A stretch of 64,000 nucleotides of DNA from an uncultured Polyangiaceae bacterium (GCA_964195975.1 CAXMQZ010000087.1:747-64746); one strand, 5' to 3'; counted from the stretch's first letter, positions 36,726 through 53,750 are shown. Made by a program: numbers and translations. Notes: a model not told the origin generated them from the letters alone.

Positions 36726-39170
36726 TTGAACAGCGCCCATCCATTCAGTTCCCGCCGAGCGGAGTTGGTCCACCTCGTCAATATCGTGGTGGTGGCGCTG
36801 TTTGCGACAACCCCGGTTGTGGCCCATATGCCACCAACGGAGGCCGCCAATCAGGCAAGCCAGGGCGCGATGATCCCCGGGCCCAATTCGACGCCACCCT
36901 TTCTTCGTCGCTATATCGATGTCGACTACGGTGGGAACGGAAAGCCGGGATGGGTCCATGCGGCGGACATGGACAGGGATGGCGACCTCGACATCGTCGC
37001 CGGTGGAGGCTTCGCCCTGTTCATCTATGAGAACGACGGCGAAGAAGGTGGCTGGAAGCGGTTTGGAAATCTCGACGTCTCCAACGCTATCGGTGCCAAC
37101 GGTGGAGAGCTCTATGATGTCGACAACGACGGGCATATCGATGTCGTTTCAGCCAAGTACCAGGACGATGTCGGCTGGTGGAAAAACCCCGGGCCCCCTC
37201 TCAGCAGCACTCCCTGGGATTTTTTCATCATTAGCACCGAGACTCGATACATGCACGACCTGATTCGTGTCGATATCGATGGTGATCAGGTCGCAGAGGA
37301 GTTCATTGCCGACCTGAATCAAGGCTACTGGAACGCCAGGATCACAATCAAATGGTTTCGCCCCGGCACTGATCCCCAACAGGCCTGGGAGCAACACACT
37401 ATCGAGGTCGATCGGCCCGAGGGTTCGCCCCATGGGCACTCGGGTCTCGATCTTGCGGACATCGACGACGACGGCCAATTGGATCTTGCCTATTCCAACG
37501 GCTGGTATAAGGGGCCGGCCGATCCGGCAGGGGTATGGACCTGGTACGAAGTCACAGACGAGTACGGCATCTCGAACACTCTTGCCCGGGATATGGATGA
37601 GGACACCGATCTCGATTTATTGATGGGCGCCGGTCACCATGGTCAGGGAGTCTATTGGTACGAGCAACCTGAGGATCCAATCGCAGGAGTCTGGACCAAG
37701 CACGATATCGACGCCTCGATCCATCACCCGGAGTGTCTACAGACGACCGACGACGGCAACGACGGTGACATCGACGTCGTAACCTGCAACCTCTTTTTTG
37801 GTGAGGATCCCGGAGAGCCCGATTGGTCGGAGGAAGTTCACGACATATTCATGTTTGAGAATCTCCCCGGAAAAAACAACTGGGACATGACCCTGATCAG
37901 CCCCAACTCCTTTCCCAGTCATCAACTACAGCTGAGCGATGTCAATCGGGATGGTCGACTGGATATCTTGAGCGAGTCGGCAGCACACTCGGTCATCAGC
38001 TACTACGAGAACGCCTTTGATCGCCTTCGACTCGACCTCGAAGTCGTCGACGAAACCTACCCGGGGAATGGCCGACCCGGCTGGTCGAGCACCGGGTACA
38101 TCGATGGCGACAACCTTCTCGATGTGATCGCTGGAGGCGGTGGAGCTATTCACTGGTATCGAGCACCCGATTGGACGCGATTCCCTATCGAGGTCATTTC
38201 CACCGCAGGCGGCAACGGGGGTCTCATCATGCAGGTCGACGACGATCCCTATCCCGACGTCGTCGCGGCACTGTTTGACGGCGATCTTGTCTGGTGGCGC
38301 AACCCCGGACCCGGTTCGGTAACCGGAGTTTGGACCCGTCACATCATTGACGGTGCTATCTCCGACTTCAACCACGATCTCGTCATGGGAAACCTAGACG
38401 AGGATCCCGACGAAGAGATCGTTGCCCTTTTTGTCGATGGGGGAGTCTTCTGGTACGACATCCCCGCCGATCCGTTGACCTCGCCGTGGCCCAGGACCAC
38501 CATCCTCAATACGATCAGCGACCCTTTTGTTGGACTGGCAATGTGCAATTTAGACGGTGATTCCGATCTCGACGTCGTGATCTCGAACCGCTGGTATGAA
38601 ACGCCGGCGAACCCCTCGACGCCGAACTGGGTTTCGCACCAACTCTTCAGCCAGAATGTTCAAAACGTCACTTGTGCTCAGGTCAACAGTGACGCCAGGA
38701 TGGATGTCGTCGCAGCCGAAGGATTTGTTCATCCGAATGGTCGTATTCTCTGGTCGGAGTCACCACCCGACCCGCGCAATGATTCCTGGGCTGAACATGT
38801 CATTTTGGATGGGCTTGATGGACCCGAGAACATCTGGGCCGGCGATCTCGATGGCGACGGCGACACCGATATCGTAAGTGGCGAAATGGGAACCTCGACC
38901 GGATGGGACGACTCTGACAGCAACCTTTTTATTCTTTTCGGACGCACCACACCAACTCTCGGTTGGGAGCGTCGAGATCAAGCCTGGAGCGTAGGCGTCA
39001 GCGCGCGGGTCAACCCATCCGATTTCGACACCGATGGCGATATCGACTTCGTCGCCGACGGCAACGCCGAGGGTCACATCTATCTCTGGCGCCATGTCGG
39101 GACCAACGCCTTTTTCAGCGACGGCTTCGAGACCGCCGACATGTCGGCTTGGACAGCCTTCCAACCGTAG
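36726..39170 (+). CDS. FG-GAP/VCBS-repeat beta-propeller protein
   Basis: At least 9 DxDxDGxxD(I/L/V)V repeats, for example DMDRDGDLDIV, DVDNDGHIDVV and DLDGDGDTDIV. Confidence 0.7.
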   Translation: MNSAHPFSSRRAELVHLVNIVVVALFATTPVVAHMPPTEAANQASQGAMIPGPNSTPPFLRRYIDVDYGGNGKPGWVHAADMDRDGDLDIVAGGGFALFIYENDGEEGGWKRFGNLDVSNAIGANGGELYDVDNDGHIDVVSAKYQDDVGWWKNPGPPLSSTPWDFFIISTETRYMHDLIRVDIDGDQVAEEFIADLNQGYWNARITIKWFRPGTDPQQAWEQHTIEVDRPEGSPHGHSGLDLADIDDDGQLDLAYSNGWYKGPADPAGVWTWYEVTDEYGISNTLARDMDEDTDLDLLMGAGHHGQGVYWYEQPEDPIAGVWTKHDIDASIHHPECLQTTDDGNDGDIDVVTCNLFFGEDPGEPDWSEEVHDIFMFENLPGKNNWDMTLISPNSFPSHQLQLSDVNRDGRLDILSESAAHSVISYYENAFDRLRLDLEVVDETYPGNGRPGWSSTGYIDGDNLLDVIAGGGGAIHWYRAPDWTRFPIEVISTAGGNGGLIMQVDDDPYPDVVAALFDGDLVWWRNPGPGSVTGVWTRHIIDGAISDFNHDLVMGNLDEDPDEEIVALFVDGGVFWYDIPADPLTSPWPRTTILNTISDPFVGLAMCNLDGDSDLDVVISNRWYETPANPSTPNWVSHQLFSQNVQNVTCAQVNSDARMDVVAAEGFVHPNGRILWSESPPDPRNDSWAEHVILDGLDGPENIWAGDLDGDGDTDIVSGEMGTSTGWDDSDSNLFILFGRTTPTLGWERRDQAWSVGVSARVNPSDFDTDGDIDFVADGNAEGHIYLWRHVGTNAFFSDGFETADMSAWTAFQP

Positions 39171-39178
39171 ATTGGAAC

Positions 39179-40186
39179 TCAGCGCATACTGTTGAGTCCG
39201 ACAAAGGTGCCACCGTTGCGGCGGCAAAGAATGCGCATGAGGGTGGCAAACCGGACGCCTGTAGTATCGGAGACGCCGGCGACCGTAAAGATAACCGGAA
39301 ATCCGATTGCGTGAATCCTCACCAAACGACTGCCTGATTTGTCGCTCTTGTTGATTCGATCGACGGTTCGCACCACCTCGTCGATGGATCGGCCAGTGAA
39401 CTCGTCACCAAACACGTAGATGCTCACCTTCTTGTCCGGAGCCGCAAAGGTCCTGATGGCTCGCGTAATCCCTTCGACCGGGCTACTGTTGCTAAAAACA
39501 CTCCAGCTGCGCAGGCGATCAAGAATCACTTTCCGGCGTGCCGGTGTATCGGGTATCCACTTTCCGGAGTAGCGCGAGAACATGTACTGGCCCATGTCGT
39601 TCATGACCTGCAAACCCTTGACCGTTGGATAGGCGTCCAGTACCTGCGTCATCTTTTGCTGAACCAGCGGCCAGGCATAGGTAAACATGCTGCCCGAAGT
39701 GTCGATCACGAAGATGATGTACTCGCTATCGACAGGAATTCCTCCGACTAGCTCCTGTTCGATCTTCCGCCTGCCGGTCTGCTGTTGAAGACGGAGCATC
39801 TCGGCTGTGAGATCCTGCTGAGCCGCCTCGAGCCGCCCTGCGATGATCTCACTCACAGCCGAGTCCTGGCTCGATGCGGCAAACTCGCCTTGGATCTCCA
39901 GTAGATCGCCTTTGAGACGTGCGAGCTTCTCCTGCTCTTTCGAGAGTTGTTCGATCCGGCCAGGAAGCTCTCGGTTCAAGATCGTGGTCTCTCCTCGAAT
40001 CTCGAAGAGCTCTTCTTGAAGTTTGGCTATCAACCCATCCAGATCGACTCGTGCCATTTCGATCGCACGGGGCTCGCCGATCTTAGTAAGGACAAGAAGC
40101 AACACAATGGCTCCAAATCCACAACAGATGACGTCCAGGAAGGAGAGACTGAAACCGTCCAGACCAGCCCTGTTTCTTTTTCTCAT
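39179..40186 (-). CDS. ExbD/TolR-like TM anchor + coiled coil + vWA domain protein (paralog 2)
   Basis: The N-terminus SLSFLDVICCGFGAIVLLLVL has an Asp in the ExbD/TolR position. It is followed by a long coiled coil and a vWA motif IIFVIDTSGSM. Confidence 0.6.
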   Translation of the reverse strand: MRKRNRAGLDGFSLSFLDVICCGFGAIVLLLVLTKIGEPRAIEMARVDLDGLIAKLQEELFEIRGETTILNRELPGRIEQLSKEQEKLARLKGDLLEIQGEFAASSQDSAVSEIIAGRLEAAQQDLTAEMLRLQQQTGRRKIEQELVGGIPVDSEYIIFVIDTSGSMFTYAWPLVQQKMTQVLDAYPTVKGLQVMNDMGQYMFSRYSGKWIPDTPARRKVILDRLRSWSVFSNSSPVEGITRAIRTFAAPDKKVSIYVFGDEFTGRSIDEVVRTVDRINKSDKSGSRLVRIHAIGFPVIFTVAGVSDTTGVRFATLMRILCRRNGGTFVGLNSMR

Positions 40187-41307
40187 GGCCAGTCGTCCGA
40201 TGGGCTCAAGAACGACCCTCGCGTGGCCATAGCAAGCCGCCAGAAGGCACTCGATGCTTCGGGGTCTCCCTCCATCGGGAAGAGGATTACGTTGACGGGA
40301 ATGCTCTTGGGTAGCTGATCAAAAGCTCGATTGAACAGCTTGAGTCGCTGTTTGGCGCTGACCTTGTTGGATTTCGGGGGGGTGCGTCCCATCGTAGGTA
40401 GGCCATCGACCAGCAGCACGATATTGTCCGGTTTGGGCTGGAGCGTTGCCACTGATTCGAATGCCCTGTACAGATTGGTACCCTTGTCCGGTGGGGTGAT
40501 CCGGAGGCGCTCGACCGCCTCGTCCAAAAAACCGGGATCGTTGGCTCGCAACCAGGTCCCTTTGGTGTCGGGGATCAAGGATTCAACCCTCTCATTGAAC
40601 GTATAAATCTGAAACTGACTGTCCTCGGGCATTTGGGCCGTTAACCAGTCGACGGTAGCAACAGCCTGACGCCACTTGCCAGACAGAATTTTCTGACGGT
40701 CAGGGAGGTTCCGTCGCCGAATCACATTGACCACAGTAGAGCCCAACATGCTTGCGGAGCTATCCACCAAGATTAGGATCCTGTTTCCACCTACTTTCAA
40801 TCCGGTCAAATACTGACGAGTCCCGTCGCCAATGACCGTGCGGATCTGATCACCTCCTGAGTCTCCTTCGGTCACCGCTAGGGCGGCAAATCGCCGAGTA
40901 CTCTCCTCGAGCGATTTCAAATCGGCCATCAACTTGTTGAGATGCTCCTGCTGCGCAAGACTGAGGTTCTCGTGTGTAGCGAGCTCGACTTGAAGGGCCT
41001 CGATCTCTTCGATGAGCCGTCTAGACAGCCCTTGCGCGATAACTTTTTTCTTGACGATGTCTCGAAGCGAGTTGCGAAGCTCGACGAGTCGCTCATGACC
41101 TTCCAGCACTTCGTAGTCCAGCCGGTCCACTTCGGCCTGCAGGTCTTCGGTCATCCTGTCGGATCTCAGACCCACCGAGGCATTGATCACCATGAACAAG
41201 AGCACCACGGAGCCAAAGCCGCACGTCATCGCATCTAGAAACGACAGGCTGAAGACGCTCGCTTGACCTCTTGACGCTCGTCTAGCCATCGTTCTCCAAC
41301 ACGACAA
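40183..41307 (-). CDS. ExbD/TolR-like TM anchor + coiled coil + vWA domain protein (paralog 1)
   Basis: The N-terminus FSLSFLDAMTCGFGSVVLLF is followed by a coiled coil and the vWA motif ILILVDSSASM. Confidence 0.6.
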   Translation of the reverse strand: MSCWRTMARRASRGQASVFSLSFLDAMTCGFGSVVLLFMVINASVGLRSDRMTEDLQAEVDRLDYEVLEGHERLVELRNSLRDIVKKKVIAQGLSRRLIEEIEALQVELATHENLSLAQQEHLNKLMADLKSLEESTRRFAALAVTEGDSGGDQIRTVIGDGTRQYLTGLKVGGNRILILVDSSASMLGSTVVNVIRRRNLPDRQKILSGKWRQAVATVDWLTAQMPEDSQFQIYTFNERVESLIPDTKGTWLRANDPGFLDEAVERLRITPPDKGTNLYRAFESVATLQPKPDNIVLLVDGLPTMGRTPPKSNKVSAKQRLKLFNRAFDQLPKSIPVNVILFPMEGDPEASSAFWRLAMATRGSFLSPSDDWP

Positions 41308-42691
41308 TCAACGGAATTTCGATACCAGGGCTTCCCAAACCGAGACGATCTCCTGCTTCGGCTTCACAAGTTCCGTCGATCGGTCGGTCGTTGAGGTAGG
41401 TCCCATAGGTACTGTGGTCCTCGATCAGAACCCGATCACCATCTCGGCGGATATGGCAGTGAGATCTCGAGACACCAGTGGTGTCTCCCGTCAGGTTTAC
41501 ACCCCGTTGATCACCAGCCAGGGCCACACCCAACCAGAACGGTTCCTCCCCAATTGGATAGGCGGTGCCACCGTAGACCAGGTGAGTCGGTGGACGCCTC
41601 GCCAGAGTCGGGGCTGTTGTGACGATCGGCTGTTCTCCAGGCTGTGTCGCCACGATATCGACCGTCGGTTTACCCAGTCGAACCACAAAAGGAAGCTCAT
41701 CACCTTCGGCCTCGATTTGGAGGCGATTGACCAGAGCACCAACCGCCGCTGCTCCTTCGGGCAGGACGACGACGTCGGTTCCACTCAGTTCGGCCAACCT
41801 GGATTGCAGCCCTGGAATCGCCGCAGCGCGCGAAGTCAACAGGATCTGCGGCGCGTCTCCTGACGCCGTAAGCGCTCCTGCCAGATTCGAGACTGTTCTG
41901 AGTTGATCTTGCACAGCTGCGATGAACTGACTCCTCGCAACGTCGATCGTATAGATCCGACCTCCATACTCGAGACTCACCTCTGCGACGTCTTCGTCTC
42001 TCAACATGTCCAGCCAAGCCGGCAAGCTGTCGTAGAGAGCCTGCTCGCTGGCTGCGTTGTGCAAAGGGTCGAAACGGGTACTGCGCACAAACTGCCCTGC
42101 GATGAGCTTCGCCCACAGGTCCTGCATCGTGGCAAGACCAACAGCCCCGCTCTCTTGGACCCGCTGGCGGACAAGGCCCGAAGTCTGATCCATCTCGGTC
42201 CAGACAAACCGATGTAGAAGAATCTCCAGATGAAGTATCCGATCGGCGTTCGAGTGACCAGCAACAGATGCGAGCGCGCTATCTACCAGCCCGGAGACAG
42301 GCATCCCGGCGGATCGGGCGATGCCGAGCAGCAGGCCTAGCTGCCAGGTCAGAAACGACCCCGGTACGGCCAGCAACATGCCCTCGACCCCGTCGCCGTC
42401 ACGAGTTGCACTGACAGCCTCCTTCGACAAAGCTTCGAGGTGTCGGTGAACCAGATCCGCCTGAGTGAGCTGTTCGGGGAATGGCCGAGGCAGGGAGTCG
42501 GTACCCAGACTATCCCAGAAGTCATTCAGCGAGCGACGCGGGTTGAGCCGCGCCTGGGCTCTTGCTTCTTGGCCAACAACCACCGATGTGCCGTCCAAGA
42601 GAGCATAACCAGGACTTGGGCCCACGATCAGCCCCTGGCCGTCCGAGATCAAAATGCCCGGGTCGGTAAGCTCGATCGCCAGAATAGACAC
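41282..42691 (-). CDS. Hsp70/actin-fold (possibly catalytically degenerate) protein with C-terminal FHA domain
   Basis: The N-terminus AIELTDPGILIS...VVVGQEARAQARLNPRRSL resembles DnaK GIDLGTTNS...VGQPAKRQAVTNP. The C-terminal FHA signature is GVSRSHCHIRRDGDRVLIEDHSTYGTYLNDRPI. Confidence 0.55.
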   Translation of the reverse strand: MSILAIELTDPGILISDGQGLIVGPSPGYALLDGTSVVVGQEARAQARLNPRRSLNDFWDSLGTDSLPRPFPEQLTQADLVHRHLEALSKEAVSATRDGDGVEGMLLAVPGSFLTWQLGLLLGIARSAGMPVSGLVDSALASVAGHSNADRILHLEILLHRFVWTEMDQTSGLVRQRVQESGAVGLATMQDLWAKLIAGQFVRSTRFDPLHNAASEQALYDSLPAWLDMLRDEDVAEVSLEYGGRIYTIDVARSQFIAAVQDQLRTVSNLAGALTASGDAPQILLTSRAAAIPGLQSRLAELSGTDVVVLPEGAAAVGALVNRLQIEAEGDELPFVVRLGKPTVDIVATQPGEQPIVTTAPTLARRPPTHLVYGGTAYPIGEEPFWLGVALAGDQRGVNLTGDTTGVSRSHCHIRRDGDRVLIEDHSTYGTYLNDRPIDGTCEAEAGDRLGLGSPGIEIPLIVVLENDG

Positions 42692-42741
42692 GACGCTCCC
42701 TTGTCAGACCCGTTGATTCAAAGAGTCCTTCGGTTCCATCT

Positions 42742-43554
42742 TCAGCTTCTTGTCTCCCCGGCTATTTGAAGATGTCGAATGAGGTTTCGGTCGAGATAGT
42801 TCTCCGTTTCCAGCACCAACCTCTCCTGTTGAAGCTGCAGCTGATGCAGCAAGAACATCAACACGATGCTTATGAGTAGAGCGACAAAAGTCGAGTTGAA
42901 CGCTACCCCCAGGCTCTGGGTAACACCTGCAATATCTCCTTCGACCGCCTTGTGGGCCTGACCCAGGGCCTCACCGATTCCCCGCACTGTTCCTAGAAAG
43001 CCTATCGAAGGGATGGCCCAAGCAATATAGCGAACCATCGACAACTCGGAATCCAGTCGCTCTGACTCGGCATTGACGATTGCATGGGCGGTTGTGGAGA
43101 CATCTTGAATGTTGCGCGTGGCACCAAAGCGATCCAATGAAGCCAGCAATGCCCTGGGAAGAAGATAGTACTGTTCTGACTCCGGTAGCGACTGAATCTG
43201 CCGCGCGTACTCTCGCGCATCTTCCGGAAGGATCTTGGTTCCGTCAGCGAGAAGCACCAACTCCTCTTGCAACTGTTTGTGCTCCTTGGCGGTCTCGATT
43301 CCTTTGTACACCATGATCGCAATCGCCCAAAACATCAGGACAAAACAAGCCTCTTGCTCGAAATCTCGAATAACCACCCAGACGGATCGTTCTTGCACAT
43401 AGGATGGGTCGACCTGCATCAGCGCTGTCTGCTCCGCCAGAATCACAGCAGCGCGAGGTCGAACCACAATCACATAGAAAGCGTGGACGACGATCAGCGA
43501 CACCGCTAGCGATAGGGCTTGGTAAACGAACTCGACCGGGTAGTTCTTTTTCAT
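42742..43554 (-). CDS. MotA/TolQ/ExbB-family proton-channel protein
   Basis: Three TM helices with the conserved YIAWAIPSIGFLGTVRGIGEALG and ...STFVALLISI... signature. Confidence 0.75.
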   Translation of the reverse strand: MKKNYPVEFVYQALSLAVSLIVVHAFYVIVVRPRAAVILAEQTALMQVDPSYVQERSVWVVIRDFEQEACFVLMFWAIAIMVYKGIETAKEHKQLQEELVLLADGTKILPEDAREYARQIQSLPESEQYYLLPRALLASLDRFGATRNIQDVSTTAHAIVNAESERLDSELSMVRYIAWAIPSIGFLGTVRGIGEALGQAHKAVEGDIAGVTQSLGVAFNSTFVALLISIVLMFLLHQLQLQQERLVLETENYLDRNLIRHLQIAGETRS

Positions 43555-43567
43555 GAGAGAAGTGGCC

Positions 43568-43843
43568 TCAGATATCCACAGGAAAGGAAACCGAGCTGCC
43601 AGCCGGCAACTTCTCGGTCGGAACAAAAACCTTCAAAGACTCGGTGGGCCGATCTTGCTGTGACTCCTCGTCCCCACTCTCCTCTTCCGGCGCGCCGCTG
43701 GCCTCAGAGTCCGGTTCCTGCTCGGGGGTGGCTTCGACTTGCTCCGATTCTGACCCGGTTTGGGCCACGGACGGAGAGTCCAGCGTCCACAGCCAACCTG
43801 CCATGACTACCGCGGTGAATAGGACAACGACGATCAATTTCAT
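43568..43843 (-). CDS. small TM-anchored acidic, disordered protein (hypothetical)
   Basis: The 91 aa ORF sits between operon genes with 13-14 bp spacers. It has an N-terminal hydrophobic helix followed by an E/S/D-rich region. Confidence 0.35.
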   Translation of the reverse strand: MKLIVVVLFTAVVMAGWLWTLDSPSVAQTGSESEQVEATPEQEPDSEASGAPEEESGDEESQQDRPTESLKVFVPTEKLPAGSSVSFPVDI

Positions 43844-43857
43844 TTATCTCTCCTAGG

Positions 43858-46311
43858 CTATTCAGCAAATCGGGCCACGCGAAAGCCGACATCGGGTCGA
43901 GCTTTGTTGCCATAGTCCCGATAGCTCAGCCTGAGCTCGGTTATTGTCGAATCCATCCAACTCGAACCTCGAATGACACGATAGTCCCCCTCCGCCGGCC
44001 CCAAGGGGTCGACATCAGGTCCTTGCGTCGTCGGTGGCGGTATCGAGTAGTAGTCCTGCACCCACTCGGCGACATTACCGCCCATGTTCTTGACCCCGAC
44101 ATCGTTGGCGTCGAAGCTGTCAACTGGTGCTGTCGCTGGATATCGGTCGTTGTAACCCGAAAGTGTCTTTTGGAGCATCTCAGCTGCCGATTGATCGCCA
44201 TAGTTACCCGATCCTGATGGTACCGGCAACGAATCTCCCCAGGGGAACTTGAGCGCCTGCTGTCGACCAGCAAACCGAGCGGCCCAGGCCCACTCGGCTT
44301 CCGTTGGCAAACGATACCCGGTATTGAACGGTTGCACGAGGACGAATGTGCCACCCTCTCCAGTATAGGCCTTGGGAAGCGAGTCCTGTTCACTCAACCA
44401 GTTGCAAAACCTCACGGCGTCCTCCCAGGTTACTCCAACCACGGGGTGGTCATCTTTTTCCAGACTTGCGCTCTCCGCCCTTCCAGATCGATGACTCGGC
44501 TGAAACTTCTTGAACTGCCGATTGGAGATCTCGCGAGCACCGATGTAGAAAGCTCGTGTAAGCTGAACATCGCGCAGCGTCTCATTGGCCCTGCGGCCCG
44601 GCTCGCGTCGCGACGCGCCCATTCGAAACGAGCCCGGCTCGATCAGCACCAGCTCCTGACCCAGCGAATTACGAAGTGTCGCTGGTGTGGACGCCCTGCG
44701 AACCTCCTCGGGTGTTCTAAGTGTCACCCGAATCTGTTGCGGGAAGCCCGGACGAGGTGTAATGGTCTGCCGAAAGGTCTCGAAACCCTCCTTTTCAACT
44801 ACGATCTCGTGCGGTATGGCTTGCAAACGCAGCGTCTGGTTTGCCCCACCTCTCGATTCGCCATCGACAATGAGCTCTGCATCGGCTGGCCTGCCATCGA
44901 TCTCGATCTCGCCAAATAGGGGTACCAGCTCGACAGTCACCTCGTGTCGTTTTCCGGACACTATTTCGACCGACTCGTTCGAGGCTTCGAAACCCAGCTT
45001 GGATAGACCGATCTCATATGACTTACCTGGCTTGAGCTCCAGCTTCAACGGAGTCTGTCCGGCATATTCGCCATCGATCGACACCGTTGCCTCTCGAGGC
45101 TGACTCGCCAGAACCAAGATTCCATCGCTAGGTTGTAAGACGATTGATGGCAGTGACTGCGGTACATTCGCCTGGACCAGCAGCTGACTCCGATACGATT
45201 TGTACCCTCTCAGACTCACTTCCACCTTTCGACTTCCAGCAGCCACATCGGCTACCACCGGTGTCTTGCCGACCGACATGCCATCAATTTGAATCGTGGC
45301 TCCGGTCGGTTGTGATTTGAATTCGACCGCGGCCCAATTCGGAGTCAAATCAACCGACAAATCGAAGATCGCCCCCGCGCCCTCCACCGGCACCGTAGTC
45401 GAGAACGGGACGTAACTCGGATGAATGATTTCAACAAGGTGGTTGCCCTCCGCCAGCGGCACTGGATCGATTGGTGTTCGGCCGACCGACTTGCCATCGA
45501 CCAGCACCTCTGCGTCACCGCTGGGACGGGCCGTTATGACAAGCAGACCTGGCATCTTCTCTAGCGTGTACTGATAGCTCTGACTAGCCTCACGCGTTAC
45601 TTCGAGTGGTGCTGCCAAAGGAAGATAGCCCTCCTTTTCGAGCCGCACTTGGTATTCGCCCGGGCGAAGAAGATAGCGACCACCCAGCTCGATCTTCAAC
45701 CGAGTTCCGTCGACCGAGACTCGATCCGCCGGCGGATCGCTCGAGATCTCTACAGCCCGGGCGGTAAACAGGAACCAGGCCGCAGAACCCAAAAGCACCA
45801 AACTTGCAAGAACCACTATTCTTGCAAGACTCGGCTTCTTCCTTCTGGCTCGCGTTCGGTCAATCGAAGCCGGCGTAAACTCCACTGGGCTTACTCGCGT
45901 GTCTATCTCATGATCGGCACCCTTTTCCGGCCGAGATCTCGCCTGAACGAGGGGTGGGTCGGTCTTTATCTCAGGGGGTCGATGCGCTATCTCGAAATGA
46001 AAGCCGTTCTCACGTTGGGACACCGAGATCTCACTTTGCCCCAGTCGAAGAATGTCTCCGCTACGCAGCCACTGCGACGCCGATAACGGTGCACCATTAC
46101 AGATCACGACCACATCGCCATCCATGGGTTGGACAAAGAGGTCGCCTCCCTCAAACCCCAGAATGGCCAGCGGTTTGTCGCCGGAATAGCCTGGGATGCG
46201 GATGTCGCTCTCGGGGCCACCTAGATGTAAGGGGAGCTCGTCGGACCGAAACCTGTCCTCTCCATCTGCGTGAACAACCACGATGGCTGTACTCAAATCT
46301 TCTCCTCGCAC
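43858..46311 (-). CDS. FHA - TM - multi-PEGA - FGE-sulfatase (formylglycine-generating-enzyme-like) domain protein
   Basis: An N-terminal FHA domain (..GDILRLGQSEISV..) and one TM helix are followed by at least 5 PEGA-like repeats (..VDGKSVGRTP.., ..IDGMSVGKTP.., ..IDGEYAGQTP..). The C-terminal FGE-sulfatase domain reads RMGAS...HPVVGVTWEDAVRFCNWLS...YRLPTEAEWAWAA...GNVAEWVQD...GFRVARF. Confidence 0.75.
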   Translation of the reverse strand: MRGEDLSTAIVVVHADGEDRFRSDELPLHLGGPESDIRIPGYSGDKPLAILGFEGGDLFVQPMDGDVVVICNGAPLSASQWLRSGDILRLGQSEISVSQRENGFHFEIAHRPPEIKTDPPLVQARSRPEKGADHEIDTRVSPVEFTPASIDRTRARRKKPSLARIVVLASLVLLGSAAWFLFTARAVEISSDPPADRVSVDGTRLKIELGGRYLLRPGEYQVRLEKEGYLPLAAPLEVTREASQSYQYTLEKMPGLLVITARPSGDAEVLVDGKSVGRTPIDPVPLAEGNHLVEIIHPSYVPFSTTVPVEGAGAIFDLSVDLTPNWAAVEFKSQPTGATIQIDGMSVGKTPVVADVAAGSRKVEVSLRGYKSYRSQLLVQANVPQSLPSIVLQPSDGILVLASQPREATVSIDGEYAGQTPLKLELKPGKSYEIGLSKLGFEASNESVEIVSGKRHEVTVELVPLFGEIEIDGRPADAELIVDGESRGGANQTLRLQAIPHEIVVEKEGFETFRQTITPRPGFPQQIRVTLRTPEEVRRASTPATLRNSLGQELVLIEPGSFRMGASRREPGRRANETLRDVQLTRAFYIGAREISNRQFKKFQPSHRSGRAESASLEKDDHPVVGVTWEDAVRFCNWLSEQDSLPKAYTGEGGTFVLVQPFNTGYRLPTEAEWAWAARFAGRQQALKFPWGDSLPVPSGSGNYGDQSAAEMLQKTLSGYNDRYPATAPVDSFDANDVGVKNMGGNVAEWVQDYYSIPPPTTQGPDVDPLGPAEGDYRVIRGSSWMDSTITELRLSYRDYGNKARPDVGFRVARFAE

Positions 46312-48350
46312 CGCACGACCACCGGATCCATTCTTCCCTCTGGGGAGACCTTGAATACACGTCGCACATCGCGGTACCCCTCACGGCTCCCTATCGCGGT
46401 GTAGGAGCCCGGTCGCAACTCGAGCTGACGTTGTTCGAACCGACCGAGCGACCCGACCCGGTAGACCACCACATAAGTGTAGTTGTCAGACACCAGTCGA
46501 ATCTGGACCGGAGTAGAAGCCACCTCGATCACCTGCTCGAGCTGAGTGATCTGGCGTCGGATTCTGGGGCCCTCCGGGAGAGCATCTCTGGCTTGGCCCA
46601 ATAGATCGATGGCCTCATTCAGCACCGGCTGAGTGGAGAATCGATCCGGATGCATGATGTGAAAATCGAGCCGATCGCTCAACTCGGCTCGCTCGGATGC
46701 GAGGCGCTGCCCTTCGATGGCAAAGCGGATCGCTGGGTCGAGCTTCAGGACCGCCGCGTACTCGGTCTCCGCTTCTCGCCAATGCTCGGTACTCGCAAGC
46801 TCCCGCGCCCTTTCGCGATGACTTTCAATCGCTGCTAGACGCATCTGTTGTTCGGCCCTGGCCAGACCATCGGCTGCCTCTCTGGAGTCGGGTCGGACCG
46901 CCAGCGCTCTCTGAAACGCTGCCTGTGCCTCCGAGAAGCTGTCTCGTTCGAGCGCACGCAGGCCAGCCGACATTGCCTCTGAAAAGGCCTTTACACCCTC
47001 GGAACTGGGTCGGCGATTCTGAGGAACCGACAGACGAGGCGGCTCCGGCAACGGCGTTGGCCTGGCAGACGACAGATCTTGATCGGGTGCGGGTGGCTCA
47101 GCTGCAGAAGCAACGACAGGAGAGGGTCGGGCCTCGATCGTCTCAATCGCGTCGCCATCCCCTGAGCTCGGCCCTGTTGACGGTCCTGGGGGCGGCTTGG
47201 CCAGCCCAGCGGGCCCGGACCTACCTTCCTCGGAATCAATTCGTATCGGTTCTCCAGCCTCGATCTCCTCTCCTACATCTTCAGCCGCCTCCGACCCGGG
47301 AACGGCGACCTGAGGATTCTCGCGCACCCAGTTGGGCAGAAGTACAAACACGGCCACCGCCAAGAGCCCAAGAAATCCAAATGCCAAGACGGTCATGATC
47401 CGGCCAGAGCTCCAGCGACTACCGACCCGCCCTTTCGTACGCTGAGCCGAAATAGATGCGGTAGCTATTCGCGATTCCAACGCACGAGGTGGAGCGCTGA
47501 TTCGAATGGGTGCTACCGGACGACCCTCGGGCTTCGCATCCGTGGTCGAGATCACGGCGAGTACTTCCTTCAAGGCTTGTCGAACAGATGCCATGTCCGA
47601 AGGCCTGTCTGAGGATCTTCGAGACAGCATGCTAGCGACCAGGTCATCAGCTTCGACAGGTAGCGAGCAGATCGAAGAGAGTCTGGTCGCCGTGCGACCA
47701 TAGCGGTCCTCGATCGAAGCGAGATCCGAAAAGACGGACTTTCCGGCGATGAGCTCGAACAACAGAGTGCCCAGCCCGTAGATGTCATCCGAGATGGCTG
47801 CAGGCTCCCCGCTCGATTGCTGTGGACTCTGATTGGTCTTCGAACCGCCACCAACCAGCTGCAAGTCTGTGGCGCTCGGTTCGAGCAGACCTGCTATTCC
47901 AAAATCACCGACGCGTAGCCGCCCTTGCTTGTCGAGCAGAATATTGCTGCACTTCAGATCGCGATGAATGACTCCGGCGGCATGCGCGTATTCCAGTGCG
48001 TCAACGACTCCACCTACTTTTTTCAGAATAGCAGGCAGAGAACCACCGAGTAGCTGCCCCATATCCCCGCCATCGAGATACTCAGCCGTGTAGAAGATCT
48101 CCTGATCGACTTCATGGAGCTCATAGACTCGGACGATGTTTTCGTGAACGAGTTTTTTCGCTATCCGAAACTCTTGCCGCAACAGATCAGCCGAGGTCCC
48201 CGAGGCATTGCCCCGCGCCAACTTGATCACCAGGTCGATATCGAACTCGGTGTCATGGGCGAGCCAAACCTCGCTCATACCCCCCGAGCCGATGCTTCGA
48301 ATCGCCTTGAAACGGGTACCGAGATGGCGTGAGCTACTCAAGTCAGGCAT
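46293..48350 (-). CDS. Hanks-type Ser/Thr protein kinase with TM segment and C-terminal TPR-like/unknown extracytoplasmic domain
   Basis: Kinase motifs GSGGMSEV, HRDLKCSNILL and DFG are present. A TM helix (IMTVLAFGFLGLLAVAVFVLL) is followed by a Pro-rich linker and helical repeats. It overlaps the downstream gene by 19 bp. Confidence 0.85.
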   Translation of the reverse strand: MPDLSSSRHLGTRFKAIRSIGSGGMSEVWLAHDTEFDIDLVIKLARGNASGTSADLLRQEFRIAKKLVHENIVRVYELHEVDQEIFYTAEYLDGGDMGQLLGGSLPAILKKVGGVVDALEYAHAAGVIHRDLKCSNILLDKQGRLRVGDFGIAGLLEPSATDLQLVGGGSKTNQSPQQSSGEPAAISDDIYGLGTLLFELIAGKSVFSDLASIEDRYGRTATRLSSICSLPVEADDLVASMLSRRSSDRPSDMASVRQALKEVLAVISTTDAKPEGRPVAPIRISAPPRALESRIATASISAQRTKGRVGSRWSSGRIMTVLAFGFLGLLAVAVFVLLPNWVRENPQVAVPGSEAAEDVGEEIEAGEPIRIDSEEGRSGPAGLAKPPPGPSTGPSSGDGDAIETIEARPSPVVASAAEPPAPDQDLSSARPTPLPEPPRLSVPQNRRPSSEGVKAFSEAMSAGLRALERDSFSEAQAAFQRALAVRPDSREAADGLARAEQQMRLAAIESHRERARELASTEHWREAETEYAAVLKLDPAIRFAIEGQRLASERAELSDRLDFHIMHPDRFSTQPVLNEAIDLLGQARDALPEGPRIRRQITQLEQVIEVASTPVQIRLVSDNYTYVVVYRVGSLGRFEQRQLELRPGSYTAIGSREGYRDVRRVFKVSPEGRMDPVVVRCEEKI

Positions 48351-48371
48351 GGCCTCGGGGACACGCCGGAC

Positions 48372-49610
48372 TCACTGCAAAGACGAGGTCTCGATGGCCA
48401 GCTCCGTGTCGGCGTTGGGGTCACCAGCAAGTCCGGTCTCCGTGGCATAGATTTGTTGAAGCAGACCTCGCCACTTGGCGTACTGGTTTTCGAGGTTACC
48501 GGTAAGGCGAACGGTCTCGCCCTCCACCTCCACCACCAACGGGGCGACCTCGGCATCGAACGAAACCCCGAGCTCCCTGATGGCTTCGCGATGCATCTTG
48601 GCTTCTTTTCCGGTTGCTATTCCGCTTCGCAGCACCATGATGCCACCGATCAGGGCAGCATCCCTGGCCACCGCCTCCAGACCGCTTCCTGGACTGGCTA
48701 CGACAGCTCCAAAGATCGCCAGTGCACCAATGATTTTGCGATTTCGAGCCTTTTTCTTGATCTCGTCCAATGCTATCTGCTCTTCGTAGGTGTAAGAGCG
48801 CCAGTCGTCGTAGGGAACCTCCATCGAAGCAGAGAAGTTGGCGTAGTTCTCATTGAGCGTGTCGATGAACATGTAGTCGCGCTCTCGTATCTGGACGATT
48901 CGGCCCATCATGGGATCGTCTTGCGCAGGCAGCTTCGCTACCGTATAGCGACCCTTCCTGTTGATCTCCAGATAGTCGTCGTAGAGCGTGGGTGCCAAGC
49001 CTCTTGCAAAACGCAGCTCGGAGATCCGTCTAAGCACCAGAAGATCTTCATTCTTCAGTTTTCTCCGAGTCTCGAGAAGCTCATTGGCTATGGCTCCATA
49101 GAGCGCCTCGAACGGCTCACGTGTCTCCAGTTCCTCGCTCTTCGGACCATAGGCGCGAGTGTCAGCCTCCTGTTTGAATCGCTTCTCCAGCCACTCGCGT
49201 CCGGATGAATCGGTGGCGCTTACCTCGACGACAAGCACTTTTCCATTCGACTTGATGATTCGACCGGTCACCGTCAGATCAACCGATGCGGTGTCTTGAG
49301 GCACGACCCGAACGGCACCCCATTGCCCCGTAGACTCGAGAGTCTCTTTCAAGCGCATGGGAATGTAGCGAGCCTCAGACTTTCGAACCTCAGGAAAGAC
49401 CTCGACCTGGTACTTCTTGTCTGTCGTCGGTTCCTCGGAGAGACCCGGATCAAAGAGCTCGATCCCCACATCGAGAAGGCTGTCCTCGGGTATGTCCTCG
49501 CGGGCCTGGATGGCCTTTGTGCTGGTCGTAGCGCTGGTTGCCGGACCGGATAGACCGGTAAGGAAAAGAGCTGCTGCCAGAAAAGTGCATCGAAGCTGAA
49601 GTCGTTTCAT
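48372..49610 (-). CDS. secreted hypothetical protein (signal peptide, C-terminal hydrophobic segment)
   Basis: The 412 aa ORF is in the operon. It has a signal peptide (MKRLQLRCTFLAAALFLTGLSGPATSA). Confidence 0.5.
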   Translation of the reverse strand: MKRLQLRCTFLAAALFLTGLSGPATSATTSTKAIQAREDIPEDSLLDVGIELFDPGLSEEPTTDKKYQVEVFPEVRKSEARYIPMRLKETLESTGQWGAVRVVPQDTASVDLTVTGRIIKSNGKVLVVEVSATDSSGREWLEKRFKQEADTRAYGPKSEELETREPFEALYGAIANELLETRRKLKNEDLLVLRRISELRFARGLAPTLYDDYLEINRKGRYTVAKLPAQDDPMMGRIVQIRERDYMFIDTLNENYANFSASMEVPYDDWRSYTYEEQIALDEIKKKARNRKIIGALAIFGAVVASPGSGLEAVARDAALIGGIMVLRSGIATGKEAKMHREAIRELGVSFDAEVAPLVVEVEGETVRLTGNLENQYAKWRGLLQQIYATETGLAGDPNADTELAIETSSLQ

Positions 49611-49636
49611 CTCGTGTCCCCTACAGTTCGTCCTGA

Positions 49637-50596
49637 TCAGCTCTTGCTGCTACCGGACTTGTAGTCCCGATACTCTTCCCACAGTTTCTCACGAAGCTCC
49701 GGATCGTCCTCGGTCATGGCTGCCTCTCGAAGCTGTCGCGCGATGATGTCGTCGTCGCTTCCATCACCGACATCCGATGGCACCCGGCCACCACCACCGC
49801 CTCCGGCAGATCCGCCACTCGCTTCACCTTCCTGCTCGGCCACTTCTTGTTGCTCGGCTTGTTCCGCGGCACCACCCGACTCCTCTCCTTCAGCCCCGGC
49901 CTCAACATCGGCGATCGCAGTGTCAGCATACTCTCCAGCACCCGAGTATCCTCCGCTTTCGGCTCCTGAGGCGGCCTCCTCCGCAGCGGCCGCGCTCGCC
50001 TCTTCCCGGCGCTCCTTTTCGAGAAGCTCCTGTTCTCGGAGCAACTCGCCATCGAACTCGGCAAGCGATCGCGCCAACTCTTCATCGAGAGCCGCGGTCC
50101 GCTCGCCGGCGGTCTGCGATCCTTGACGGATCGCGCCTCCAGAGGCTGCAGCCCTGGCATCATCGGGTACGGCGGGGCCACTTGGCTCGCTCGGCTCCCC
50201 AGAGGGATTTTCAGAACCCGGATCGCTCATAGAGGCTTTCTCAGGTTGACCACCCTCGGGCCCAGCAGCACCGTCCTCTCCAGAGGACATTTCATCGCTG
50301 CCGCCTTCAGCCGACTCGGCGCCCTCTCCAGGGGGCAGTACCTGCTCGACCTGAGAGGTTTCGGCTCCCCCTCCCGATTCCGAATCCGAAGGTGGCTGGC
50401 TGGGGTCAGAGGGGCTGGATGTCGGAGATGGAGGTGGAGGCGTCGAAGGTGTTTGCGGGGCCGACGGCGAGGGTGGAGTCGGCGGCGGCATCGATGGCGA
50501 AGGAGGCTGCGTCGAGGTACTCGAACAGCCCACGAAGGCCATCGCATGACCGATCAACGCTGCTACCAACAGTAGTTTTCTTGGCTTGACTCTCAT
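49637..50596 (-). CDS. lipoprotein with Pro/Ser-rich and acidic low-complexity regions
   Basis: Starts at MRVKPRKLLLVAALIGHAMAFVGC (lipobox-like). It has PPTPPSPSAPQTPSTPPPPSP and E/A/G-rich tracts. Confidence 0.5.
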   Translation of the reverse strand: MRVKPRKLLLVAALIGHAMAFVGCSSTSTQPPSPSMPPPTPPSPSAPQTPSTPPPPSPTSSPSDPSQPPSDSESGGGAETSQVEQVLPPGEGAESAEGGSDEMSSGEDGAAGPEGGQPEKASMSDPGSENPSGEPSEPSGPAVPDDARAAASGGAIRQGSQTAGERTAALDEELARSLAEFDGELLREQELLEKERREEASAAAAEEAASGAESGGYSGAGEYADTAIADVEAGAEGEESGGAAEQAEQQEVAEQEGEASGGSAGGGGGGRVPSDVGDGSDDDIIARQLREAAMTEDDPELREKLWEEYRDYKSGSSKS

Positions 50597-50774
50597 GACA
50601 TCAGCTCTCGTTAGCAGCGGCAACTCGAACAGGGCGCGATTCTCAGGTCCGGGCGATTCCCAACCGAACATTCCCGATGTGTCCGAGCAGGAACTGATTA
50701 CAGTCTAGCTCAAGCTCGTTCGACCTTGAGAACCGCTGCGTCTACCTCTAAATTCCTAGCAAATACCAGGCCAA

Positions 50775-51731
50775 TTACTTCGGTAGGGGAACTGCGAAGT
50801 GCTGTCGACAGAACTCCAAACGAGCCACAATCGAAGCTGGTTCACTCGAGATCGACTGCACCAATTCGAGACGACTCTGTAGCCCTGCTTCGTTGGCGAT
50901 CTGGATACTGAGACCCGGTCGGGCATTGAACTCGAGAATCAAAGGGCCAAGATCGCGGTCGATGACGATATCGATTCCAAGATATCCCAGTCCCGTGATC
51001 TCGTATCCTTCCGCCGCCATTTCTAGAATCTGGTTCCAAGCGGGCAGAACCATCCCTGCCAGCTTCTGACCAGTGTCAGGGTGCTCGCTGACGCAACGAT
51101 TGTCCAGAACACCCCCCAGGCTAGATCCGGTAGCGATGTCGACACCAACGCCTACCGCCCCCTGATGCAAGTTTGCTCGGCCATCGGAGAGCCGGGTCGG
51201 GAGCCGAGTCATCGCCATGACGGGATAACCCTGAAATACGATGAGTCGAATGTCGGGCACGCCGCGATAGCTCATCGGCGCCAGCGCCTCCGCGGTCTGG
51301 ACGCAGTACTCGACCATCACCCTGTCGCGTTGACCACCGAGGCTGTAGAGACCACTGAGCATGTTGGAAATGTGATGGGCCATCTCATCCCGATCGACCG
51401 GGGCACCGCTCGATTTGAAAAAGACATCTCGCCGACGACCCTTGATCACCAACACACCGTTGCCACCGCTACCGTGGGCTGGCTTTACGACAAACTGATC
51501 TCGAGCTCCCAATAAGTCTGTGAGATCTCGAATGTCATGCTGAGTCGATAAGACAGCAAACAGTTCCGGGACGGGCATTCCAGCCTCGACTGCCAGCTGT
51601 TTTGTGCGTAGCTTGTCGTCGACGAGGGGGTAGAGTCGCCGCGGGTTGAACCGGCGGATGTAGTCGACGTTGCGGCTATTAATGCCCAGCACACCAAGCC
51701 GTCGAAGATGTTGTACCCCGTTATTCATCAC
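50775..51731 (-). CDS. RimK-like ATP-grasp amidoligase (alpha-L-glutamate ligase-related)
   Basis: ATP-grasp motifs are present (..FVVKPAHGSGGNGV.., ..LGYLGIDIVID...ILEFNARPG). The N-terminal RLAN-like region is MMNNGV..LGINSRN. Confidence 0.75.
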   Translation of the reverse strand: MMNNGVQHLRRLGVLGINSRNVDYIRRFNPRRLYPLVDDKLRTKQLAVEAGMPVPELFAVLSTQHDIRDLTDLLGARDQFVVKPAHGSGGNGVLVIKGRRRDVFFKSSGAPVDRDEMAHHISNMLSGLYSLGGQRDRVMVEYCVQTAEALAPMSYRGVPDIRLIVFQGYPVMAMTRLPTRLSDGRANLHQGAVGVGVDIATGSSLGGVLDNRCVSEHPDTGQKLAGMVLPAWNQILEMAAEGYEITGLGYLGIDIVIDRDLGPLILEFNARPGLSIQIANEAGLQSRLELVQSISSEPASIVARLEFCRQHFAVPLPK

Positions 51732-53244: not shown

Positions 53245-53750
53245 TTGCCATCCTCCAACGGACAGGTGGGTTCGGTGGTGAACGACTCGCCGGCATCAAC
53301 CAGCGCGACATTCTCGAGAGCATTGCGCCCCAGGAGGACCGGATACTGGAATCCACTCCGGTCGACGAGACTGACCTCGACCTCATCGAGATGATCACCG
53401 AGGCAGATCTCTACTTGTACAACCGGACGGCGCTGGCTTGGCCCCTCGTGTTCTTTGATGTAGGCGTAACGAATCAATCTTTTCTTGTACCGAATTCGGC
53501 GGCCCGAGTTTCTGTCGATAACCAAGAACTCGACCCATCGATCACCGTCTCTCTCCCTATAGCGCCGAATCTTGGAGGCGTCGAGCGACGAGGTGTCAGC
53601 TCCAGTGTCCAGCTTGGCCTCCATCCTCAGGCGACTCTTGCCTATCTCTACCCGCTCGACCCAACCAAAGATGTCTTTCTTTCGAGAGACTGCCCACGAG
53701 GGTTCAACTAAAAGAACCACAAAGAGAAAAGCCGGAAGCGCAACTGACAC
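53241..53750 (-). CDS. retropepsin-like aspartyl protease (Pfam 'putative ATP-dependent zinc protease' family)
   Basis: It has a signal peptide and the LDTGADTSSL aspartyl-protease motif. The conserved partner genes lie downstream. Confidence 0.65.
   Translation of the reverse strand: MSVALPAFLFVVLLVEPSWAVSRKKDIFGWVERVEIGKSRLRMEAKLDTGADTSSLDASKIRRYRERDGDRWVEFLVIDRNSGRRIRYKKRLIRYAYIKEHEGPSQRRPVVQVEICLGDHLDEVEVSLVDRSGFQYPVLLGRNALENVALVDAGESFTTEPTCPLEDGK

Follow-up and report, generated by a model that had tools for sequence, protein, structure and literature searches.

A TolQ-like channel, two tethered vWA proteins and a conserved set of partners encoded in one operon of Myxococcota, Acidobacteriota and Gammaproteobacteria

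Ion-driven motors of the 5:2 type are at work in flagella, in TonB-dependent uptake, in the upkeep of the envelope by Tol-Pal, in gliding and type IX secretion and in Zorya defence, and each new set of partners has revealed another use of the proton gradient beyond the inner membrane. An operon on a 64,000-nucleotide stretch of DNA from an uncultured Polyangiaceae bacterium (GCA_964195975.1, CAXMQZ010000087.1:747-64746; this whole stretch is hereafter the window) raises the question of what a TolQ-like channel might drive when the genes beside it encode an Hsp70-like protein and two membrane-tethered vWA proteins. Nine open reading frames (ORFs) fill the minus strand from 39179 to 50596, with spacers of 13–50 bp and overlaps of 4–26 bp, and thus form the tight co-directional operon that was described in an earlier reading of this DNA (the original prediction). 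In order of transcription they encode an acidic lipoprotein, a 412-aa protein, a kinase-transmembrane (TM)-TPR protein, a PEGA-FGE protein, a small peptide, the MotA-like channel protein, an Hsp70-like protein with an FHA domain, and the two vWA proteins (vWA1 and vWA2). The list of domains in the original prediction is right, and most of them were recovered with Pfam (MotA_ExbB, VWA_2, FHA, five PEGA repeats, FGE-sulfatase, and Pkinase with TPR); its placement of the Hsp70-like gene between the two vWA genes was wrong, as the MotA-like gene precedes it and both vWA genes come after it. We consider it fairly probable that the operon encodes an envelope-spanning machine that is driven by the proton motive force and built around a 5:2-type rotary motor.

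The channel and its paired vWA partners

The channel protein scores 54 bits against the MotA_ExbB family (Pfam cut-off 22.9), and TolQ is its best match in both the PDB and NCBIfam. When it is aligned to Escherichia coli TolQ (8odt_A), its GTVRGI falls on GTVWGI (T145) and its AFNST on ALIAT (T178), and both threonine motifs (GTVRGIG and AFNST) are at least 95% conserved among 81 sequences. With the family match and both lumen threonines of TolQ aligned, the presence of a MotA/TolQ/ExbB-type channel in the operon is borne out. Its assignment as a TolQ or ExbB equivalog was rejected on score, the match to the TolQ model TIGR02796 (E 1e-7) lying under the NCBIfam cut-off. Hydropathy places an extra N-terminal hydrophobic segment at residues 5–30, followed by a loop of ~36 residues, ahead of the TolQ-like three-helix core; this segment would be either a fourth TM helix or a signal sequence.

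Relatives were collected by scanning the channel protein against one genome per GTDB species, which yielded at least 471 related loci, the best 80 of which were fetched with 10-kb flanks. Neither in the 64-kb window nor in these 80 flanked loci did phmmer detect a TolR or ExbD homologue, a search made at single-sequence sensitivity with E. coli TolR and ExbD as approximate queries; within that sensitivity, the lack of a canonical partner gene is supported.

A replacement is suggested by the two vWA proteins. vWA1 opens with a short basic cytoplasmic tail and a TM helix whose Asp25 is invariant; ~100 residues of coiled coil follow, and then a vWA domain that bears a metal ion-dependent adhesion site (MIDAS). 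vWA2 likewise has a basic tail, a TM helix with an invariant Asp18, a coiled coil (~40–138) and a divergent vWA domain. Across ~70 orthologues of each family the membrane aspartate, which lies near the cytoplasmic end of the helix, is invariant (FLD.M.CG.G in vWA1 and SFLD..CGFGA in vWA2), as is the MIDAS DxSxS (D.SASM and IDTSGSM, respectively). Specifically, the invariant MIDAS residues are D182-x-S184-x-S186, T277 and D301 in vWA1, and D162-T-S164-G-S166 and D261 in vWA2. Both TM helices (FSLSFLDVICCGFGAIVLLLVL and FSLSFLDAMTCGFGSVVLLFMV) are free of histidine and carry the aspartate in place of the SHLS motif of TonB and TolA. Four basic residues precede each helix, an arrangement that predicts a periplasmic location for coiled coil and vWA head, as is the case in ExbD, TolR and MotB.

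A profile-profile comparison aligns the two families over 263 columns (hhalign probability 99.6%, E 7.5e-25), which take in the TM helix and coiled coil and extend over the first half of the vWA domain with its MIDAS; at the level of single sequences, they share 27% identity across the aligned N-terminal 198 residues (BLASTP E 2e-9 over the N-terminal half). By these alignments vWA1 and vWA2 are true paralogues, and two paralogous single-pass TM-coiled coil-vWA proteins with a membrane aspartate are indeed what had been predicted. The accompanying label “ExbD-like” suits the TM helix with its aspartate but not the rest of either protein, which contains no ExbD periplasmic domain. Searches of the PDB with vWA2, as a single sequence and as a profile, returned coiled-coil matches (residues ~26–138) or chance matches only, and the identity of its head as a vWA domain rests on the profile-profile match to vWA1. 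Both proteins are encoded in all complete loci. The system is abundant, with homologues of vWA2 falling into at least 8000 clusters when grouped at 90% identity and into 1375 when grouped at 50%. The longest ORF of vWA1 opens at a TTG (41307); the orthologues begin at its Met7 (ATG 41289), which is likely the true start and would shorten the overlap with the preceding gene from 26 to 8 bp.

At the level of sequence, then, the hallmarks of ion-driven 5:2 motors are all found: a channel of the MotA/TolQ family, a pore lined with threonines and a single-pass partner with a protonatable membrane aspartate. A recent study of bacterial force transducers ([quoted passage not shown], Mol Biol Evol 2025; PMC12204202) describes TM-tethered vWA genes that tightly co-occur with tolQ homologues and are found with neither tolR nor exbD. 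According to its section 8 and Fig. 4c-d, these genes mostly come as heterologous pairs without SHLS and encode a TolR/ExbD-like trans-pore helix with a conserved aspartate, which AlphaFold 3 models place inside a TolQ-like pentamer, ringed by threonines. The reference organism is Idiomarina loihiensis, and the class occurs in Proteobacteria and other diderms. This operon has every feature described there (a tolQ-like gene without tolR or exbD, an adjacent heterologous pair of TM-tethered vWA genes, the helix aspartate, no SHLS, and the threonine ring of the channel), the likeness being one of described features. The published text covers the channel and the vWA pair only. To these the conserved set found here adds an Hsp70 nucleotide-binding domain (NBD)-like protein, a PEGA-FGE protein, a TPR protein that bears a kinase domain in part of the loci, a pair of exported proteins or lipoproteins and the small peptide, and it extends the host range to Acidobacteriota.

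Conservation of the gene set and its optional kinase layer

The nine-gene minus-strand operon is real and strongly conserved. Gene order and orientation are the same in all 80 fetched loci as far as each contig extends, and wherever a locus is long enough to hold the MotA-like, Hsp70-like, vWA1 and vWA2 genes, these four are neighbours. About 30 of the loci carry an Acidobacteriota label (Thermoanaerobaculia, Marinacidobacterales, Sulfomarinibacteraceae and the cultured Sulfidibacter corallicola M133) and about 44 belong to Gammaproteobacteria, including many planktonic marine hosts. In a Myxococcales metagenome-assembled genome (MAG; GCA_029863845.1, loci L081 and L082), the full gene set is kept and is split into two convergent operons, one with the small ORF and the MotA-like, Hsp70-like, vWA1 and vWA2 genes, the other with a 382-aa gene, a 410-aa gene, the kinase/TPR gene, an extra 174-aa gene and a shorter PEGA/FGE gene (604 aa). 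Retention of the set after such a rearrangement is good evidence of functional linkage and, together with the constant order in the 80 loci, confirms that the juxtaposition is not a matter of chance. A separate 192-aa FHA gene lies ~2 kb upstream in the same MAG. Channel proteins are 61–83% identical to the window copy over the 80 loci and 61–69% identical in the Gammaproteobacteria; the latter value suggests that the operon moved between phyla as one unit. The invariant core comprises the two exported proteins, the TPR and PEGA-FGE proteins, the small peptide, the channel, the Hsp70-like domain and the two vWA proteins.

This pattern bears on whether the operon might serve in anti-phage defence after the manner of Zorya, with a MotAB-like motor that would sense envelope perturbation caused by phage. 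PADLOC reports a weak ZorA match (E 2e-4) and generic kinase matches, predicted conflict systems repeatedly feature vWA, FHA, kinase and FGE-like domains (PMC7159879), and Zorya ZorAB is likewise a non-flagellar motor of the MotAB type with an unusually long coiled-coil extension. However, in Zorya it is the A subunit that is extended, by a tail in the cytoplasm, ZorB is a peptidoglycan binder and the effectors are nucleases, whereas here the coiled coil is predicted to be periplasmic and belongs to the B-like subunits. The ZorA match is limited to the shared MotA domain of a 270-aa channel that has no ZorA tail; no peptidoglycan-binding ZorB or ZorC/D/E accompanies it, and Pfam, PADLOC and NCBIfam found no nuclease, protease or NADase effector. 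The strict gene order and high sequence conservation over two phyla, together with the absence of any homologue of the system in a search of plasmids, likewise argue against defence, which we regard as very improbable.

The genes of the window operon are listed in Table 1. None of the nine proteins has an equivalog in NCBIfam, a promoter and terminator scan of the operon gave nothing above shuffled controls, and an Rfam scan of the window gave no match.

Table 1. Genes of the operon in the window, in order of transcription
Product	Position	Strand	Features and matches
Acidic Pro-rich lipoprotein	49637..50596	-	Signal peptide, lipobox FVGC; no Pfam, NCBIfam or PADLOC match
Exported 412-aa protein	48372..49610	-	Outer-membrane-lipoprotein fold by fold search
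Hanks-type Ser/Thr kinase-TM-linker-TPR-PEGA-like beta protein	46293..48350	-	Pkinase E 1.5e-34, TPR_2 (Pfam)
FHA-like-TM-5xPEGA-FGE-like protein	43858..46311	-	PEGA E 7e-60 (5 stretches), FGE-sulfatase E 5e-48 (Pfam)
Small secreted acidic protein, 91 aa	43568..43843	-	Signal peptide and near-invariant C-terminal peptide
MotA/TolQ/ExbB-type channel subunit, 270 aa	42742..43554	-	PF01618 E 1.5e-14
Hsp70-NBD-fold protein with C-terminal FHA, 469 aa	41282..42691	-	AlphaFold2 and Foldseek; PF00498 E 7e-10
vWA protein 1 (TM-coiled coil-vWA)	40183..41307	-	VWA_2 E 5.7e-8 (Pfam)
vWA protein 2, paralogue of vWA1	39179..40186	-	No Pfam match; hhalign to vWA1 family

One layer of the system is not part of this core. 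The kinase-TPR protein of the window has a cytoplasmic kinase domain with the motifs GxGxxS, VIK, HRD and DFG, a TM helix (320–338), a Pro-rich linker of ~110 aa, and then periplasmic TPR repeats and a beta domain that we call PEGA-like because its profile cross-matches the PEGA repeats of the next gene in comparisons of family hidden Markov models (HMMs). Using family HMMs built from the loci, we tallied kinase and FHA domains over the 59 complete loci, where “elsewhere” means within the fetched ±10 kb (Table 2). In 27 loci the operon encodes the kinase domain as a fusion, in 10 the domain is found elsewhere, and the remaining 22 have no kinase within 10 kb. Kinase-less orthologues of the TM-TPR-beta protein (L052, L073, L080 and, from S. 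corallicola M133, L035) illustrate that only the TM-TPR-beta part is universal in the family.

Table 2. Kinase and FHA domains in the 59 complete loci
Kinase	N-terminal FHA-like	C-terminal FHA	Loci
Fused in operon	Yes	Yes	17
None within 10 kb	Yes	Yes	14
Elsewhere within ±10 kb	Yes	Yes	10
Fused in operon	No	Yes	9
None within 10 kb	No	No	5
Other combinations			4

The kinase domain and both FHA domains are absent from five complete loci, and phospho-regulation is thus an add-on: the phosphothreonine layer is an accessory regulator and not a core property. The phosphothreonine regulation that had been predicted from the window accordingly applies to part of the family only and fails for the loci with no kinase nearby and for the five that also lack both FHA domains. 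Where present, the kinases mostly keep the Gly loop, the VAxK lysine, HRD and DFG. Three of 41 aligned orthologues read AHGTL... for HRD and ITGFA... for DFG and are probably pseudokinases kept in the same position. An apparent lack of conservation at the kinase N-terminus was traced mainly to the choice of start codon, motif counts showing canonical kinases in most loci.

It is also worth considering that the Hanks kinase, FHA domains, periplasmic vWA domains, FGE-like domain and lipoproteins share one operon, a combination that would suit an envelope-surveillance signalling module. In such a module the periplasmic vWA, FGE-like, TPR and lipoprotein parts would sense damage or a ligand, FHA would read threonine phosphorylation and the channel would act only as a sensor or gate. 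TagR, the co-receptor in the H1-T6SS (type VI secretion system) pathway, is FGE-like; the kinase there is PpkA, which carries a periplasmic vWA domain, and the reader is Fha1. That pathway (PpkA-PppA-Fha1-TagQRST) resembles the present operon in its membrane Hanks kinase, FHA reader, periplasmic vWA domain, accessory periplasmic protein and lipoprotein, but its vWA domain is fused to the kinase, it includes a PP2C phosphatase and a secretion apparatus, and it has no MotA-like channel. In Pseudomonas aeruginosa, the vWA domain of PpkA is extracellular and TagR modulates PpkA (PMC3224232). The operon described here has no linked phosphatase, and many lineages do without the kinase. More directly, the five loci without kinase and both FHA domains keep every other gene, which precludes signalling as the core function. 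The operon also lacks any linked response regulator, transcription factor or secretion system, over a third of the complete loci have no kinase nearby, and the most conserved protein of the set is the channel. We therefore hold a signalling module to be unlikely.

Partner proteins in the cytoplasm and periplasm

The Hsp70-like protein combines an NBD fold (residues 1–343), a disordered linker (344–363) and an FHA domain (~365–462), and its AlphaFold2 model has a pLDDT of 90. Foldseek matches the fold to the NBDs of Ssz1, Ssb, DnaK and BiP with E values of 1e-17 to 1e-19 and a TM-score of ~0.7 to NBD-only chains; Hsp70 NBDs being the top matches, the actin/Hsp70 fold assigned to this gene in the original prediction is supported. 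By Pfam and the AlphaFold2 model, the protein has no substrate-binding domain, and the FHA domain stands in that position. Intact Hsp70 proteins carry the phosphate-binding loops DLGTT and DLGGGTFD. Here the corresponding loops read LAIELTDPG and LHLEILLHR, not Gly-rich motifs, and this apparent degeneracy leads us to suspect a scaffold without ATPase activity, which would probably serve as a cytoplasmic partner.

The C-terminal FHA domain of this protein gives profile matches to mycobacterial and Rad53 FHA domains and retains the Ser-x-x-His and Asn signatures. The PEGA-FGE protein is built differently: a cytoplasmic FHA-like domain (~20–100) is followed by a TM helix (165–183), and then by five periplasmic PEGA repeats and a C-terminal domain of the FGE-sulfatase fold. 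Pfam sees no FHA domain at its N-terminus even at E ≤ 1; hhalign finds homology to the family of the C-terminal FHA domain (96%, E 2.7e-9, 80 columns). The Ser-x-x-His signature of phosphothreonine binding is missing, and this domain is a degenerate FHA-like fold that may not bind phosphothreonine. Hence, of the two FHA readers that had been proposed, the one on the Hsp70-like protein is canonical and the other is only FHA-like. Pfam searches with the isolated N-terminal FHA-like domain, the C-terminus of the lipoprotein and the C-terminal domain of the kinase protein returned nothing significant.

True formylglycine-generating enzymes (FGEs) need a catalytic Cys pair in the C-terminal motif RGGS.x.C....C. 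Among 72 orthologues, no cysteine is conserved in the corresponding region, which in the window reads RGSSWMDSTITELRLSYRD, and the lack of a conserved pair identifies the FGE-like domain, as far as its residues can tell, as a non-catalytic binding module. Its fold matches the NCBIfam models of GldK/PorK (9e-36), GldJ (4e-14) and PvdO, all under cut-off.

The GldK/PorK and GldJ matches are one reason to consider a surface-motility or adhesion motor of the gliding type, which would move vWA adhesin heads or an outer-membrane track, much as GldLM drives the GldK/GldN ring in Bacteroidota or as AglRQS-Glt works with the vWA adhesin CglB in Myxococcus. Likewise, vWA domains are reported as adhesins in Glt (PMC9946355), the operon encodes TPR proteins and outer-membrane lipoproteins, and the authors of PMC12204202 raise gliding for another vWA family of theirs. 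GldLM/PorLM also offers a general parallel, in that the motor is ion-driven, its dimeric subunit itself spans the periplasm and an FGE-sulfatase-fold protein belongs to the machine. The parallel ends there: GldL is not of the MotA_ExbB family, GldM has no vWA domain and GldK is an outer-membrane lipoprotein, whereas here the FGE-like protein is anchored in the inner membrane and GldN is absent. Membership among type IX or gliding motors was rejected, the GldK model reaching 124 bits against a cut-off of 350 over the FGE fold only, with no match to GldL, GldM or GldN; homologues of SprA and Glt are missing as well. The vWA heads, being anchored in the inner membrane, cannot reach the surface, and the hosts include the planktonic marine Gammaproteobacteria. 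A gliding motor is, in our estimate, quite improbable.

The three exported products may be where the motor meets the outer envelope. The acidic lipoprotein is largely disordered, with 67 Asp and Glu residues against 23 Lys and Arg in a 344-aa ORF, and has a conserved C-terminal helix motif (DD.+A+Q+REAA..E.DP.L++.LW.EY+.Y). A homologue heads the operon wherever the contig reaches that far. In the window its longest ORF opens at 50671, and the Met at 50596 precedes the signal peptide. For the 412-aa protein, Pfam, NCBIfam and PADLOC gave no match and PDB searches by sequence (single and profile) were empty; only the fold search was informative, and it relates the N-terminal alpha/beta domain to outer-membrane lipoproteins of the PelC/CsgG/TolB-N/LptE type. 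The protein further contains a long helical hairpin with a Gly-rich hydrophobic tip at 293–330. It has a lipobox (L-x-G-C) in Gammaproteobacteria and some Acidobacteriota and a plain signal peptide in the window; as the lipobox Cys is missing here and in many acidobacterial orthologues, the protein should be lipid-anchored in only part of the family.

The small protein consists of a signal peptide, an acidic spacer of variable length and the C-terminus F-x-P-[ST]-E-x-x-x-x-D-x-x-x-x-F-P-x-D-I-COOH (FVPTEKLPAGSSVSFPVDI in the window). In 67 of 71 loci, from two phyla, an ORF that ends in this way separates the FGE gene from the MotA gene; tblastn detects it in only ~20 loci, because only ~20 residues are conserved. 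A conserved acidic peptide on a flexible tether beside two MIDAS-bearing vWA heads is an obvious candidate for their tethered ligand.

A proposed mechanism and its relation to known machines

The following scheme would account for these features. A pentamer of the MotA/TolQ-like protein would make up the ion channel. Into its pore vWA1 and vWA2 would each place the N-terminal helix that bears the aspartate, and together they would act as a heterodimeric axle in place of ExbD, TolR or MotB; we infer this 5:2 assembly by analogy. Borne on coiled coils of ~100 residues (roughly 15 nm), the vWA heads would reach through the periplasm toward the outer membrane, where their MIDAS sites could grip an acidic ligand, candidates being the small ...FPxDI peptide, the acidic lipoprotein and the 412-aa protein with its ring-forming type of fold. 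Proton flow would turn the pentamer relative to the axle and so generate force, torque or tension between the inner membrane and the outer membrane or a cell-wall layer. The TM-TPR-PEGA-like and TM-PEGA5-FGE-like proteins would serve as scaffolds around the motor, anchored in the inner membrane and extending into the periplasm, and the Hsp70-fold protein would be the motor's partner in the cytoplasm. Where they are present, the kinase fused to the TPR protein and the FHA domain of the Hsp70-like protein may couple the assembly or activity of the motor to phosphorylation. The stator energised by the proton motive force that had been put forward for this locus is in part supported, in that the channel, the membrane aspartate, the coiled coil and the MIDAS fit a dimeric motor partner; its control through phosphothreonine is not part of the core. 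At the level of sequence this reading of the core has good support, and it agrees with the AlphaFold 3 prediction that was published independently (PMC12204202).

Several observations weigh against a motor of this kind. The resemblance of the vWA proteins to ExbD and TolR is confined to one helix, the operon has no recognizable peptidoglycan-binding domain of the OmpA or LysM type, and PEGA is only a suspected wall binder. The phosphate-binding loops of the Hsp70-like protein look degenerate, and its role in the scheme is a guess. The match to the published Idiomarina family is one of description, and the study of that family reports no phenotypes.

It is informative to compare the operon with Tol-Pal, to which its role may be closest; our best guess, by analogy, is outer-membrane tethering or envelope mechanics. 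Both have a TolQ-type channel, a long helical periplasmic stalk with a globular head (TolA in Tol-Pal), a TPR protein (CpoB) and a lipoprotein, and the N-domain of the exported partner resembles that of TolB. In contrast to Tol-Pal, pore helix and stalk are here one polypeptide, and the vWA heads, the Hsp70-like cytoplasmic partner and the optional kinase and FHA domains have been added. Membership in Tol-Pal was rejected, as neither a TolR with the ExbD-family periplasmic domain nor TolA, the TolB beta-propeller or an OmpA-like Pal is found. The claim that the locus does not match the layouts of Tol-Pal, Ton, Mot, Agl-Glt or Zorya holds, and it holds for Gld/Por as well; the novelty of the core is reduced, since this core had already been predicted in PMC12204202.

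A survey of MotAB relatives (PMC12505986) makes no mention of vWA or FHA, a review of 5:2 motors (PMC9389320) makes none of vWA, and the survey of conflict systems cited above (PMC7159879) makes none of MotA or ExbB. The extended set of conserved partners and the optional phospho-switch thus appear to be undescribed in the literature that we found. We put forward tentatively, as somewhat short of an even chance, that the operon encodes a distinct trans-envelope machine of at least nine components and not a variant of Tol or Ton, characterized by a proton-driven rotary motor with a heterodimeric axle whose integrin-like heads catch a dedicated secreted peptide or a ring protein of the outer membrane, coupled in the cytoplasm to a pseudo-ATPase of the Hsp70 fold and switched by phosphothreonine in many lineages. 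An axle that itself bears the working heads, with fixed partners in the periplasm, outer membrane and cytoplasm, is an arrangement that we did not find discussed. If the proposal is true, marine and sediment Acidobacteriota, Gammaproteobacteria and Myxococcota would be putting 5:2 motors to a new use in their physiology. The presence of the system in the cultured S. corallicola M133 (NZ_CP071793.1, at ~3.49–3.51 Mb) makes the prediction open to genetic and structural testing.

Some neighbouring genes deserve mention. Upstream of the operon by 104 bp, at 50775-53750 on the minus strand, lie genes for an ATP-grasp_ST ligase, an inactive-transglutaminase/7TM protein and a putative Zn protease, which we take to be the known peptide-modification triad; they were rejected as part of the operon, as they occur near the system in one of the 80 loci (L002), downstream and in another position. 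On the other side, at 36726-39170 on the plus strand, is a convergent gene for an 814-aa protein with FG-GAP repeats; its stop codon and that of vWA2 are 8 bp apart. About 24 gammaproteobacterial loci have two additional operon-linked genes (~220–270 aa, no Pfam match); none of the gammaproteobacterial extra genes adjoins the operon in the window. The pair follows downstream from the vWA2 stop codon in some loci (L040, L047, L051, L061, L064, L076-L078 and L080) and lies ~1 kb upstream on the opposite strand in others (L027, L031, L036, L044, L046, L049, L053, L054, L060, L070, L074 and L075). Gammaproteobacterial loci also have a third gene directly upstream of that for the acidic lipoprotein, encoding a TPR_12 protein of 500–570 aa whose tail is TonB-C-like by eye only.

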